From an uncultured Nitrospiraceae bacterium (lineage in GTDB: Bacteria > Nitrospirota > Thermodesulfovibrionia > Thermodesulfovibrionales > Dissulfurispiraceae), in the NCBI GenBank assembly GCA_963727805.1, contig CAVSHF010000005.1, positions 576,001 through 640,000 on the forward strand: a stretch of DNA of 64,000 nt. Direction: 5' to 3'. The translations under genes were made by a program, and so were the position numbers. The notes beneath the pieces are model-generated. The model was not told the DNA's origin. It worked only from the letters and a program-made list of their open reading frames with translations, and searched no databases. Numbering within the stretch: the stretch's first letter is position 1; the number at the start of each line of letters is the position of its first letter. Shown here piece by piece: positions 31,672-35,215 of the stretch.

Positions 31672-32112
31672 TTATTCCACCTTTTCCAATTCGTTGCCAC
31701 ACCTGCATTTCCCCGGTCTATCCGAGATAGTATTGCAATCGCATCCCGGACCGCAGTTACAAACATACAATCCCTTTAGGCTCACTCTCTTTACATTTTT
31801 GCCGCAGCCGCATTTTGTGGGATCGGCTTCGTTAATTTTGCAATCACATTCTTTCCCGCATGTACAAAGTATCGCCACTCCTTTTTCTATCTTAAGAACA
31901 TGCATCGGCACAAGATCCTGTCCGCAACTGCATTTCCCTGGCTTTGTCGACACAGTATTGCACTTGCATTGATCACCGCAATTGCAGACGTAGAGCAGGC
32001 TGCCTTCAGTGACAATAGTCTTCGTCTCCTCATTCTTCTGTGCGGCAAACGAGATAACGACGCATGTCGCTACTGCTAACAGAGTTACCAGGAACGTTAA
32101 TTTAAGCTTCAT
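31672..32112 (-). CDS. Secreted cysteine-rich protein with three CxCGxxCxC-x9-CxCG repeats
   Basis: Signal peptide (..SFA-AQ); 18 Cys in three regular units. Confidence 0.8.
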   Translation of the reverse strand: MKLKLTFLVTLLAVATCVVISFAAQKNEETKTIVTEGSLLYVCNCGDQCKCNTVSTKPGKCSCGQDLVPMHVLKIEKGVAILCTCGKECDCKINEADPTKCGCGKNVKRVSLKGLYVCNCGPGCDCNTISDRPGKCRCGNELEKVE

Positions 32113-32381: not shown

Positions 32382-33428
32382 TCAGTTTTCTATGAAACAT
32401 TGCGGATCGTCAGCGAGGTAATTTTCTTGTCCTTTTGCCTTTGAATATGCGTACGCGATTGCCCTGCAGCCGCGGCAATTAGCCCATCTTTTACACGCTC
32501 CGCATTTGCCTTGATACTTGTTTCTGTCTCTTAAGTGCTCCAAGACAGGTGAGGTCGCCCAAACTTCGCGCAAGGAATCAGTTTTGACGTTGCCTATAGG
32601 TACGTTAAGCCGTCTGCACGGAGTAATCGTCCCATCCGACAGAATGGTTAGTCCAGAGACGCCCGCTGCGCAGCCTCCTGCGGCTACATTGCCCATGTCT
32701 TCATCGTTTTCAAGTGACGTTAATTGAGATGCGACAGGATCACCGGTTATGATCTTGAGAGGCGCTGCATCGAGAGCGAATATTTTCCCGTACAGGTTTT
32801 TGATCGCTTCCATTTCGATCATTTTATCGAGCATCGCCTCCCCCCTCCCATACGGGACAAGCCTCGAAAACCCAAGCCTCTGGACGCCGAGTGATTTGGA
32901 CAGGCCTATCATCTCCATAAAATGTCCGGCGTTCAACGACGAAAGTGTAGCGTTCAATGTAACCGGGACACCGGCATCGACGAGATTTTTCACCCCCCCG
33001 ACGGCCGCCAAGAAGCTGCCTTCGCCCCTGATTTCTTCATGTATCGCCTCAGGCCCTTCCACACTAACCTGCACTCCTTTGATCCCTATCCCGGCGAGTC
33101 TTTGCGCCAAATCTTTATCTATAACTGTCCCGTTGGAAAGTATATATATATCGGCCCCTTTCCACGCAATTTCTTCGAGTATCTCAAAAATGTCCCGACG
33201 AAGAAAAGGTTCGCCTCCAGATATGTTATAGCTCATAGACAGTTTAATACCGTAGGCATCTTCCCAATCCCATATCATCCCGGAGGCTTCTTCGATAATG
33301 TCCATAATAGAATCTAGCGGCAATTCGGCAGGCTTTCTTTCCTGCTGATAGCAGTGGCGGCAACGGAGATTGCACCGCTCGGTAATATGCCATTGAATAA
33401 AAAAATCGTGTGTGTCGTTGACTGACAT
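32382..33428 (-). CDS. Radical SAM/SPASM enzyme, putative peptide maturase
   Basis: QWHITERCNLRCRHC (CxxxCxxC), SGGEP, SPASM CAAG..DGTITPC..CGAC..CRGCR..DDPQC; ATG after AGAGGA. Confidence 0.92.
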   Translation of the reverse strand: MSVNDTHDFFIQWHITERCNLRCRHCYQQERKPAELPLDSIMDIIEEASGMIWDWEDAYGIKLSMSYNISGGEPFLRRDIFEILEEIAWKGADIYILSNGTVIDKDLAQRLAGIGIKGVQVSVEGPEAIHEEIRGEGSFLAAVGGVKNLVDAGVPVTLNATLSSLNAGHFMEMIGLSKSLGVQRLGFSRLVPYGRGEAMLDKMIEMEAIKNLYGKIFALDAAPLKIITGDPVASQLTSLENDEDMGNVAAGGCAAGVSGLTILSDGTITPCRRLNVPIGNVKTDSLREVWATSPVLEHLRDRNKYQGKCGACKRWANCRGCRAIAYAYSKAKGQENYLADDPQCFIEN

Positions 33429-33469
33429 AAGCAATCCTCTTATAAGGATACAATTAAAAGCATTCGGTT

Positions 33470-33517
33470 AAAAAAGTAAAGCAGATACGCATCGTCCCTA
33501 TTTTGCGTATCTGCTTT
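33470..33517 (-). terminator. Intrinsic terminator/attenuator between the peptide gene and the rSAM gene
   Basis: Perfect 14-bp stem AAAGCAGATACGCA/TGCGTATCTGCTTT, 12-nt loop, then ACTTTTTT. Confidence 0.8.
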
Positions 33518-33526
33518 CATGATGTG

Positions 33527-33543
33527 GCTGCCGACCTGGCAGC
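33527..33543 (-). promoter_or_regulatory. Candidate bacterial SECIS element
   Basis: GCUGCC-AGGUC-GGCAGC hairpin beginning 11 nt after UGA 33555-33557; AGGUC loop at +18 to +22, as in the E. coli fdhF SECIS. Confidence 0.72.
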
Positions 33544-33545
33544 GT

Positions 33546-33659
33546 TTAACTCTTTCAACTGCTTCACTTGCGGCATGCCTTGCCAGGAGAGGTTTTCTTG
33601 AGTCTGTCCCAGAGGACCGCCTCTTTCGCTAGTGCTGCCTTGCTTAGCTCTTTCTTCAT
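33546..33659 (-). CDS. Putative selenocysteine-containing RiPP precursor, MKKELSKAALAKEAVLWDRLKKTSPGKACRKUSSUKS (31 aa if UGA is a stop)
   Basis: Very strong SD GAAAGGAGGTG; in-frame TGA at codons 32 and 35, then TAA; SECIS-like hairpin; upstream of rSAM/SPASM. Confidence 0.75.
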
Positions 33660-33684
33660 CCTGTTGTCACCTCCTTTCGTGTTA

Positions 33685-33758
33685 ATAGTTATAAGCTATG
33701 CATGACATTAAATAGATAGCTTATAACTATAGTTTATCACTTCTGTAAAAATAGTCAA
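33685..33758 (-). promoter_or_regulatory. Sigma70-type promoter and 15-bp inverted repeat upstream of the peptide gene
   Basis: TTGACT-N16-TAAACT with extended TG; ATAGTTATAAGCTAT-N16-ATAGCTTATAACTAT at 33685-33730. Confidence 0.6.
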
Positions 33759-33770
33759 TTCCCAAAAAAT

Positions 33771-35215
33771 CTGGAGTTTCCTGAGTTTTTATCCGAACTC
33801 GAAGAGGAGTTGGAAGTCATCGCTACCGGCGGCTGATAATCCCCGTAGTGCCGTTTTGTCTGGGAACAGTAGATTGTAGATTCCATCAGCTATAGCGTAA
33901 TTGAAAAAACTCGGCACTCCAAAGAATCGTTTGGACACCAGAAAGACTCGTTCCACCAGCAATCGCAGCTTTATGTTCTGCCCAAGATACACCGCTGCAA
34001 AGTAAGAAACCGCAAGGACCAGTACGACGATATTTCGTATGCTGATATAGCTTCTCACCCGTATATCCTCAAGGTTATAGCACTGTTTGATGTACCGGTA
34101 CGACTCATCGCATTTCCACCGAGTCAGATAGTATTCAACAATCTTCCAGATGCTTTGCTTCTTGCGCATATTGACCGCACAGTTTGTTAACAGCATCATT
34201 GGCTTCATCCCGAATCCTTTTACCACAACCATGTGGAGGGGACGGTCATAGCCTGGAAGTTTAACCGCCACAGCATTGTACTGAACGGCCCGCCGCTTTT
34301 CCCTGCCGTCATCATAGACTATCAGAATACTTTCATGAGGCGTCGGCATCGTCATCGCCATATCAACACAGTGTTTGCGCTTTCCCCTATGCATCAAGTC
34401 CCGCTCCTTCAGCCGAATTACAAATCGTTGAGGCTTATCTCTTGTGAAGTAGTACTTATAGACGACCCCTCGGTCGCCACCGCGATCTATCGCATGGATT
34501 CCCTTATCTCCTATATGGCCGCGTACTGTTTCTATAGACTTCAACAGCTCAGAGTTCTCGCTTTTGACGTCCGCAGCCTCATAGGAATAGGCTTTGCAAT
34601 AAAGAGGTATTACCCGTGTGGTCTCCATATCCGCTGCCACTATTTTGCACAGATGATAGCCGTCACCTATTTCATGTTCACTGCCATCGTATATCTTGCT
34701 TAGCAGTTCCATCTTCTTGGCATATTTCTTCCGTATGTCGCCGGGATCGATCGCAATAACCATATCGTCACTAACCTTTGATGCTCCAAGCCGACAGATC
34801 TCTTCATTAATTGCAGTGGTAAAATCTTCATCGTCAAGGTTGCGAGACAGGCGGTCTTCGGTTTTTATCAATGCCTGCTCCTCTTTCAGTGTTCGAGCAA
34901 TGTTGCTTAGCTTTACGTCTTTAGCTGCCTGGATCCCATATAGCATTTCCTTGATGAGTTTCTGCTTTGGCTTCTTGCAGTTCTTTGAGATGATTCCTGA
35001 GAATTTCGAGAGTTGTCCCTTTAGATTGGCTACTGTCTTAGAGTTCTCGCTCATGGCACCTCCATCTTAGCCACAGATAAGGCTTTCACTATAATAGAGC
35101 ATTCGAAACTCAGGAATCTCCCTCAAAAACAGTCCCCGCCAGATGTTTATCATCAGATACCTTGCTACTTCAATAGGTTAGCTTATTTCTGACCGAAAAA
35201 CTCAGGAAACTCCAG
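33771..35215 (-). mobile_element. IS4-like insertion sequence, complete (1445 bp)
   Basis: Perfect 20-bp IR CTGGAGTTTCCTGAGTTTTT / AAAAACTCAGGAAACTCCAG; 9-bp duplication CCAAAAAAT (33762-33770, 35216-35224). Confidence 0.94.
33789..35054 (-). CDS. DDE transposase (IS4-like)
   Basis: AIDPGD, AIDRGGD, LLTN, YLTRWKCDESYRYIKQ; SD GGAGG. Confidence 0.9.
   Translation of the reverse strand: MSENSKTVANLKGQLSKFSGIISKNCKKPKQKLIKEMLYGIQAAKDVKLSNIARTLKEEQALIKTEDRLSRNLDDEDFTTAINEEICRLGASKVSDDMVIAIDPGDIRKKYAKKMELLSKIYDGSEHEIGDGYHLCKIVAADMETTRVIPLYCKAYSYEAADVKSENSELLKSIETVRGHIGDKGIHAIDRGGDRGVVYKYYFTRDKPQRFVIRLKERDLMHRGKRKHCVDMAMTMPTPHESILIVYDDGREKRRAVQYNAVAVKLPGYDRPLHMVVVKGFGMKPMMLLTNCAVNMRKKQSIWKIVEYYLTRWKCDESYRYIKQCYNLEDIRVRSYISIRNIVVLVLAVSYFAAVYLGQNIKLRLLVERVFLVSKRFFGVPSFFNYAIADGIYNLLFPDKTALRGLSAAGSDDFQLLFEFG

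Follow-up and report, generated by a model that had tools for sequence, protein, structure and literature searches.

A candidate second family of selenocysteine-containing RiPPs: a short precursor with two in-frame UGA codons beside a radical SAM/SPASM enzyme in Nitrospirota and Desulfobacterota

Could a short open reading frame that contains two UGA codons and lies in front of a radical SAM/SPASM enzyme gene be the precursor of a selenium-containing peptide, and if so, what would the enzyme make of it? The question is raised by a locus on the minus strand of a 64,000-nucleotide stretch of DNA (the window) from an uncultured Nitrospiraceae bacterium of the Dissulfurispiraceae. A first, sequence-only reading had proposed a hidden 37-codon frame ending in C-RK-UGA-SS-UGA-KS-UAA, with a strong Shine-Dalgarno sequence before it and a SECIS-like hairpin after it, in the gene order promoter, peptide, strong hairpin, radical SAM/SPASM enzyme. 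Translation with TGA read as selenocysteine (U) reproduced this frame exactly, giving 37 residues with the C-terminus C29-R-K-U32-S-S-U35-K-S followed by TAA, and the remaining elements were found in the order proposed, the promoter by consensus match only (Table 1).

Table 1. Features of the locus, in coordinates of the window.
Feature	Position	Strand	Remarks
Radical SAM/SPASM enzyme, 348 aa, predicted maturase	32382..33428	minus	Pfam PF04055 and PF13186
Strong hairpin, 14-bp perfect, U-rich tail	33470..33517 (hairpin 33478-33517)	minus	between peptide and enzyme genes
SECIS-like hairpin, 6-bp stem, AGGUC loop	33527..33543	minus	3' untranslated region
Precursor gene	33546..33659	minus	37 codons, TGA read as U (U32, 33564-33566; U35, 33555-33557); TAA stop 33546-33548
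Shine-Dalgarno sequence AAAGGAGGTGA	33667-33677	minus	seen in sequence; strong
Two ATAG-N7-CTAT palindromes	33716-33730, 33685-33699 (region 33685..33730)		just downstream of -10
Putative sigma-70-like promoter, -35 TTGACT, extended -10 TG-N-TAAACT	33731-33758	minus	consensus match

The precursor gene and its UGA codons

The window itself contains a promoter-like site, a strong Shine-Dalgarno sequence and the open reading frame, and the genome contains a selenocysteine machinery. The encoded peptide is composed of a basic leader and a 9-residue core, C29-x-K-U32-x-x-U35-K-S. Among homologues the leader residues E13, W17 and P25, the core and the GGAGG(TGA) ribosome-binding site are conserved, and the predicted structure of one family member has a helix across residues 7-31, in agreement with the helical leader and 9-residue core proposed at first. 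The search for sigma-70-like promoters found 5 sites where 2.9 were expected, the one in front of the peptide being a consensus match, and TTGACA/extended -10 pairs of a similar type lie upstream of many homologues. Each ATAG-N7-CTAT element is a 15-bp perfect inverted repeat that presumably resembles LysR/OxyR boxes. Perfect boxes occur in 15 of 64 homologue promoter regions versus 0.18 in shuffles, which suggests that they form a putative repressor operator, with repression by a dedicated regulator; a weight-matrix scan of the genome for the box gave no clear regulon. An IS4/IS701-like transposase gene terminates 30 nt above the promoter.

As for the decoding machinery, tRNA-Sec (selC), selA, selB and two selD genes were found in the genome, all over the cut-off, and each selD carries an in-frame TGA itself. 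These genes are located elsewhere in the genome; no sel gene is adjacent to the cassette, nor is an RRE, protease or exporter gene, as had been noted from the window. Among genomes of the order that have the peptide, selA is present in 100 of 101; it is common in the order anyway (273/301), so that this co-occurrence lends weak support. One peptide-positive genome (G148, 77% complete) yielded no selA, and in another (G784) selA is present and the search for selB gave no match.

Homologous loci were gathered from named contigs, from the order and the phylum, and from the Syntrophorhabdaceae-containing class and its phylum. The codon counts rest on the 102 distinct cores that remained once 7 duplicates and 5 loci judged decayed or false (L017, L044, L047, L085, L086) had been removed; kin are not independent in this or the other family counts (cores, loci, genomes). 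TGA stands at both positions in 102/102 cores, in searches that had allowed cysteine. The last residue is followed by TAA in 47 cores, TGA in 38, TAG in 15 and another codon in 2. A third selenocysteine after K-S, which the TGA in 38/102 cores might indicate, was thus rejected, because TAA or TAG occupies this position in 62/102 and a codon that varies among the three stops is a real stop. Furthermore, synonymous variation was found between and after the UGAs, including changes of serine codons from AGY to TCN, and such swaps past the first UGA point to selection on the protein. Conservation of the peptide with its two UGAs and of the hairpin extends over more than 100 loci in Nitrospirota and Desulfobacterota, so the feature is more than chance, although the small hairpin alone would be ordinary.

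The sequence-only reading had named orthologs in which cysteine aligns with UGA as decisive, and this was observed once. A metagenome pattern scan with cysteine at the first position returned 15 loci, of which one is genuine (L112); the other 14 are unrelated chance matches. L112, the sole Cys homologue, comes from a fragmentary metagenomic contig and ends in C-R-K-C-N-G-C-K-S; both positions in question read TGT, and the stop codon is TGA. The hairpin stem is retained, with CGUC as the loop, and the C-terminal part of an enzyme of the same clade (62%) lies about 1 kb away. A protein search with L112 gave no match, and the ESM Atlas no usable one. The 120 protein homologues listed, out of 258, all end in C-x-K/T, the first UGA having been taken for the stop by gene callers. 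The only full-length match in a 1.84-billion library (P0242) proved to be a gene call with TGA read as tryptophan and is not a Cys homologue. In four wetland metatranscriptomes there are contigs that extend over the peptide region of relatives, with identities of about 85-95%; since they may include DNA and are not of this strain, they do not show expression.

Bacterial SECIS elements are hairpins with a G-containing loop about 16-37 nt after the UGA. In the window the loop starts 27 nt past the first and 18 nt past the second UGA, and among 67 regex-matched loci it starts at +26/+17 in 47 and lies within +25 to +36 in 66, the common spacing of +26/+17 thus falling inside the bacterial range. 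By itself, a small hairpin of this kind is not unusual (z -0.5 to -1.5). A regex that demanded a GGU-type loop, accompanied by a shuffle control that ignores relatedness, detected it in all but one of the 71 loci of the first set. Each of stem positions 1-6 is paired in 68-70 of the 70 hairpins, and pair 6 shows compensatory changes (C-G 42, U-A 25, U-G 2, A-U 1), so that the SECIS-like hairpin suspected from the window is conserved with compensatory pairs and appears to be placed to serve both UGAs. Rfam returned two sub-threshold matches only. The 14-bp hairpin that follows stands out far more (z -5.7); the terminator scan did not call it, and it is likely a partial terminator or stabiliser that would yield an excess of peptide mRNA. 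Taken as a whole, the comparison of homologous sequences indicates that both in-frame UGAs most likely encode selenocysteine, and SelB acting on the single hairpin downstream of the stop would almost certainly recode the two of them.

The partnership of peptide and enzyme

Using a threshold of E<=1e-90 for the enzyme clade, we screened 301 genomes of the order and found the clade in 97 and the peptide in 101 genomes, with both in 95, the peptide only in 6 and the enzyme only in 2. The peptide gene is located 27-677 nt upstream of the enzyme gene on the same strand in 74 of the 95 genomes with both, and most enzyme homologues thus have the upstream peptide whose lack the sequence-only reading had regarded as damaging. 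In wider samples the peptide was found in 74 of 401 genomes of the phylum, in 49 of 96 genomes of the Syntrophorhabdaceae-containing class and in 10 of 231 genomes of the phylum of that class; within the class the enzyme is present at 29 of 30 loci, and the remaining locus ends at a contig break. Two further copies occur in the host genome: at C3:991293-991409 the peptide gene is intact and a stub of the enzyme gene comes after it, and at C3:1337112 the peptide gene is broken, with a remnant of the enzyme gene and yceI behind it. Among the copies, only the cassette in the window carries a whole enzyme. A fourth match to the core pattern (C5, about 455804) has neither leader nor hairpin and was dismissed as chance. 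The co-occurrence of a short precursor, made up of leader and core, with the enzyme is what is seen in radical SAM/SPASM maturase systems in the broad sense, and the neighbouring enzyme is likely the dedicated maturase of the peptide.

The same arrangement might be read as a selenium-sensing leader acting in cis, or as a frame that ends at the first UGA, with the conserved 3' part serving as RNA that controls the enzyme gene. The upstream position in 74/95 genomes would suit such control, as would the ability of the UGA region in the window to pair with sequence downstream of the strong hairpin and a decayed copy (L017) with TAA at the first UGA position, the codon by which the initial reading would have had homologous peptides end if it were wrong; the genome of L017 also has an intact copy (L078), and all 102 intact cores have TGA there. 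However, the peptide and enzyme genes are unlinked in 21 of the 95 genomes, some of them possibly through assembly breaks, and at 11 of 14 unlinked peptide sites examined the next gene lies on the opposite strand, leaving nothing to attenuate. The peptide gene is therefore kept as a stand-alone unit at these sites, which argues against a cis-acting leader, as do the Cys homologue, the synonymous swaps past the first UGA and the freely varying terminal stop, and we consider this explanation very improbable. At 3 of the 14 sites the peptide gene lies beside selD-yedF-cysteine desulfurase genes or a selenium-associated LysR gene.

Another explanation leaves the peptide unmodified: C-x2-U-x2-U would bind an Fe-S cluster or a soft metal, so that the peptide serves as accessory subunit, electron relay or selenium donor, and the enzyme acts on another substrate. 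CxxCxxC spacing is typical of ferredoxin cluster ligands, and the spacing of the core recalls it. Moreover, no conserved third gene, protease, exporter or second tailoring gene was found among the homologous loci, no MNIO or PqqD family gene is present in the genome (PF05402 gave no match), and YceI is a neighbour of the cassette at 13 of 123 loci, a number that includes duplicates from a single genome. Against it, the leader-plus-core architecture, the strong Shine-Dalgarno sequence and the hairpin in between are as in genes for RiPP precursors, SbtM, which is the nearest characterised enzyme among those sampled, modifies a selenocysteine peptide, and no other conserved neighbour offers a substrate. 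An unmodified partner is in our judgement improbable, and the reading of the peptide as precursor and the enzyme as its maturase is followed below.

The enzyme and its possible chemistry

The enzyme has the hallmarks of the broad class, that is, a radical SAM CX3CX2C motif (C19/23/26) and a SPASM domain with two auxiliary clusters (C253, C271, C309, C312, C318, C321, C344), and none of these cysteines, three in the radical SAM motif and seven in the SPASM domain, varies among 87 homologues. Neither the domain search nor the predicted model revealed an RRE in it. The predicted structure (pLDDT 89) matches SkfB and SuiB best, and also PqqE; the closest named homologue (72%) is from a Dissulfurispiraceae genome of the phylum Nitrospirota, and the ESM Atlas returned generic radical SAM clusters only. 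None of the NCBIfam cut-offs was passed: the scores were 176 of 500 bits for NirJ2, 168 of 500 for AhbD, 157 of 400 for ACGX, 150 of 400 for GeoRSP, 134 of 350 for SbtM, 100 of 625 for StsB and 68 of 340 for PapB. The SbtM model (TIGR04082) was matched over positions 199-515 of 516 only, and true SbtMs score 605-796 bits on it.

In an unrooted tree of 80 sequences with SH-aLRT support only, SbtM on a long branch, and true ACGX, MftC and thioether-forming (ranthipeptide) maturases left out of the sample, the enzyme clade forms one branch of 26 rows (SH-aLRT 99). It groups with SbtM and an ACGX-like row (L160), opposite AhbD, AhbC, GeoRSP and ScmE/F-like rows; the branch between these two sides has an SH-aLRT of 99, and of 98 with a mixture model on 47 rows. 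Forcing the clade together with AhbD was rejected (p-AU 0.006), so that the grouping with heme-biosynthesis enzymes that the sequence-only reading had feared did not appear. A QWH motif is present in 21 of 26 rows of the clade and in 8 of 8 SbtM rows versus 0 of 45 AhbD, AhbC, GeoRSP and other rows, and the clade shares with SbtM the SPASM spacing C-x17-C, where AhbD has C-x6-C-x10-C.

What would such an enzyme do to the core? Two chemistries have to be weighed. In the first, the SbtM-like one, a hydrogen is taken from C-beta of Cys/Sec and the residue is oxidised twice to a thio- or selenooxazole, as described for SbtM in passages of PMC9204691. In the second, whose selenoether crosslinks the sequence-only reading had listed first, the enzyme would join Cys29, Sec32 and Sec35 by thio- or selenoether bonds to residues close by, e.g. 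the invariant lysines, as in ranthi- or sactipeptides, and the outcome would be a compact seleno-macrocycle. Possible acceptors are at hand, namely the lysine two residues after the cysteine (100/102 cores) and that after the second selenocysteine (102/102); the best structural matches are SkfB and SuiB, and the seven SPASM cysteines with a likely open site are as in CteB/PapB. PapB and Tte1186 make selenoethers on synthetic selenocysteine peptides in vitro (passages of PMC10177961), where Se binds at a three-Cys auxiliary cluster, and such a cluster is equally typical of thioether-forming enzymes in the same source. The present enzyme, however, is without an RRE, unlike CteB/PapB, and scores 100 bits for StsB and 68 for PapB, and both the QWH motif and the tree of the sampled families link the clade with SbtM. 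We regard crosslink formation as unlikely, though it carries more weight than the two explanations set out above, and on the tree and the QWH motif we lean to SbtM-like oxazole chemistry. The case for the latter is weakened by an identity of 27% between the enzyme and SbtM and by the scores for NirJ2, AhbD, ACGX and GeoRSP (149-176), which exceed that for SbtM (134).

Under the SbtM-like scheme the basic, conserved helical leader probably docks on the enzyme and is recognised without an RRE while the core is modified, and the peptide could act in trans. By analogy with CteB, auxiliary cluster I would be ligated by C253, C271 and C321 only, with one iron open, and these three protein cysteines would leave it free to bind a selenolate. 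The 5'-deoxyadenosyl radical would take H from C-beta of Cys/Sec, and two rounds of oxidation would give an oxazole carrying SH/SeH. The residue before the second selenocysteine is glycine or serine in 101 of 102 cores, and this selenocysteine would be the most SbtA-like site. That the Cys/Sec of the C-x-K-U-x-x-U core are oxidised by their own maturase in the manner of SbtM, to thio/selenooxazoles, is in our estimate evenly poised. The product is probably intracellular, because signal peptide, conserved protease and exporter are all missing, and it is a matter of speculation that, as a selenium peptide, it might remain cytoplasmic and bind soft metals or be redox-active.

Significance and comparison with known systems

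No NCBIfam model of the peptide family was found, and literature searches, which covered mostly open literature, found no description of it. Table 1 of PMC13188914 (2026) lists 119 selenoprotein families; within that table TIGR04081 is the only RiPP precursor, SbtA/SbtM thus being the only selenocysteine-containing RiPP system there, and the present motif is absent from it. An excerpt of PMC13692751 concerns an unrelated archaeal system. Gene callers truncate the peptide at the first UGA and so miss the family, and yet 101 of 301 genomes in the order and 49 of 96 in the class contain it. The system is small and soluble, has two genes and offers a natural all-Cys variant as control, and it might therefore tell what selenium changes in radical SAM peptide chemistry; it also bears on whether selenoether or selenooxazole products occur naturally outside SbtA and on how one hairpin behind the stop would recode two close UGAs. 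The boldest form of the proposal remains tentative, and our confidence in it falls somewhat short of even: a second, independent and more widespread natural selenium-RiPP lineage, in which one 3'-UTR SECIS would decode two UGAs at a distance of three codons and a radical SAM clade lacking an RRE would make a new C-Se chemotype, either selenoether macrocycles of natural origin or selenooxazoles in a cluster. Inside the cell and under regulation, the product would chelate soft metals or store selenium, in roughly one third of the genomes of a Nitrospirota order and one half of those of the Syntrophorhabdaceae-containing class.

AhbD and NirJ2 (TIGR04545, TIGR04055) are similar to the enzyme in size, share the SPASM motif CX2CX5CX2C and give the highest raw HMM scores (168-176 bits), but AhbD has AWE in place of QWH and an extra auxiliary-cluster cysteine. 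An identity as AhbD heme b synthase was rejected, the scores being far under 500 bits, the constrained tree having a p-AU of 0.006 and the host possessing an AhbD-like gene of its own elsewhere in the genome (434.8 bits versus 164.6 for the enzyme). JGI labels some homologues 'AdoMet-dependent heme synthase', and the analysis corrects the annotation of many clade enzymes labelled as haem synthases. ACGX (TIGR04340) and GeoRSP (TIGR04303) are uncharacterised peptide-associated SPASM enzymes of similar size; L160, the nearest outside row in the tree, scores best on the ACGX model, whereas GeoRSP forms a separate branch. The peptide contains no ACGX repeat and gave no match to the ACGX peptide model.

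CteB, PapB, Tte1186 and SkfB resemble the present system in that they are SPASM enzymes whose auxiliary cluster has three Cys ligands and whose neighbour is a short Cys-rich precursor. They differ in that their natural substrates have cysteine and not selenocysteine, CteB and PapB carry an RRE, and the scores of the present enzyme on these models are far below cut-off.

The closest likeness is to SbtA/SbtM (TIGR04081, the 'Selenobacteriocin' precursor, and TIGR04082, the maturase), where a precursor with at least two selenocysteines is likewise encoded beside a radical SAM/SPASM gene, in hosts of a similar type (Desulfobacterota-type anaerobes); SbtM furthermore shares the QWH motif, the C-x17-C SPASM spacing and the grouping among the sampled families. 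The precursors are different, as the sequence-only reading had said of the peptide. SbtA-like frames upstream of SbtM are about 100 aa long, hydrophobic at the N-terminus and equipped with SGUG motifs, whereas the present peptides have 36-40 aa, are basic and end in C-x-K-U-x-x-U-K-S. The TIGR04081 search (E<=10) gave no match for the peptide or its 28 homologues, 29 aligned members in all, and SGUG/GGUG, the SbtA precursor motif (PMC13188914, Table 1; passages of PMC9204691), is absent from the core C-x-K-U-x-[GS]-U-K-S, with its register of i/i+3. On the side of the enzymes, the N-terminal part of SbtM is missing here, and the SPASM cysteines are usually 7 versus 8 in SbtM. The best reading of these likenesses and differences is that peptide and enzyme constitute a second seleno-RiPP family, probably with SbtM-like oxidation.

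Promoter palindromes and selenium-related neighbours of the peptide genes

The promoter of the cassette carries ATAG-N7-CTAT palindromes that overlap the likely transcription start, both in the window and in homologue promoters (e.g. loci L013, L080, L091, L093, L094), and among the homologues the motif is enriched approximately 80-fold over shuffled sequences. Two selenium-associated LysR genes of the window's genome score above the family-model cut-off, one of them convergent with selD. Among the peptide genes not adjacent to an enzyme gene, at loci L078, L096 and L080, a selD-yedF-cysteine desulfurase cluster adjoins in genomes G201 and G300 and the peptide gene of G129 is divergent from a LysR_Sec_metab gene. 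At three other loci (L084, L091, L097) the unlinked peptide gene lies beside a gene for a molybdopterin oxidoreductase of Fdh/PhsA-like type, which scores below the model cut-offs. A gene of similar appearance, with an ATAG-N7-CTAT box upstream, is present in the window's genome (G000, contig C3, G000:C3:167203).

Positions of the palindromes, of genes flanking the cassette and of further peptide copies
Feature	Position	Strand	Remarks
ATAG-N7-CTAT palindromes	window 33685-33730		two perfect copies forming a 15-bp inverted repeat
IS4/IS701-like transposase	window 33789-35054	(-)	every match scores under its cut-off; gene end lies 30 nt upstream of the promoter
146-aa protein	window 31672-32112	(-)	directly downstream of the enzyme gene
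Second peptide copy (L045)	G000:C3:991293-991409		peptide intact, both hairpins; decayed enzyme piece after the peptide
Third peptide copy (L047)	G000:C3:1337112-1337475		the same enzyme gene, reduced to a decayed piece, comes after the peptide

Genes accompanying the cassette

A YceI-family gene recurs directly 3' of the enzyme gene or, at L161, between the peptide and enzyme genes. It was found at 13 of 123 loci, a lower bound given the short flanks (L027, L028, L040, L047, L057, L059, L072, L073, L112, L136, L137 and L161 among them), with no obvious signal peptide in its products there, and is possibly an accessory gene of the cassette. The 146-aa protein of the window had no match in NCBIfam or Pfam, and its gene was not seen to be conserved beside the cassette at homologous loci. 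It has a signal-peptide-like start and approximately 18 cysteines in C-x-C repeats, and may be a secreted metal-binding protein. Elsewhere in the window's genome the transposase has a single relative, which is partial.

Further copies and variants

The layout of a peptide followed by an enzyme stub was also observed in RNA-run contigs from relatives, and genome G114 holds two complete peptide-enzyme cassettes (L090 and C143). At three Desulfobacterota loci (L233, L234, L235) the hairpin loop reads UGGAU, not GGUC, and the last Ser of the peptide is encoded by TCN codons; this loop is a lineage-specific SECIS variant. No peptide was detectable upstream of the enzyme at L160 (G684), a sister enzyme that obtains its best score with the ACGX model.
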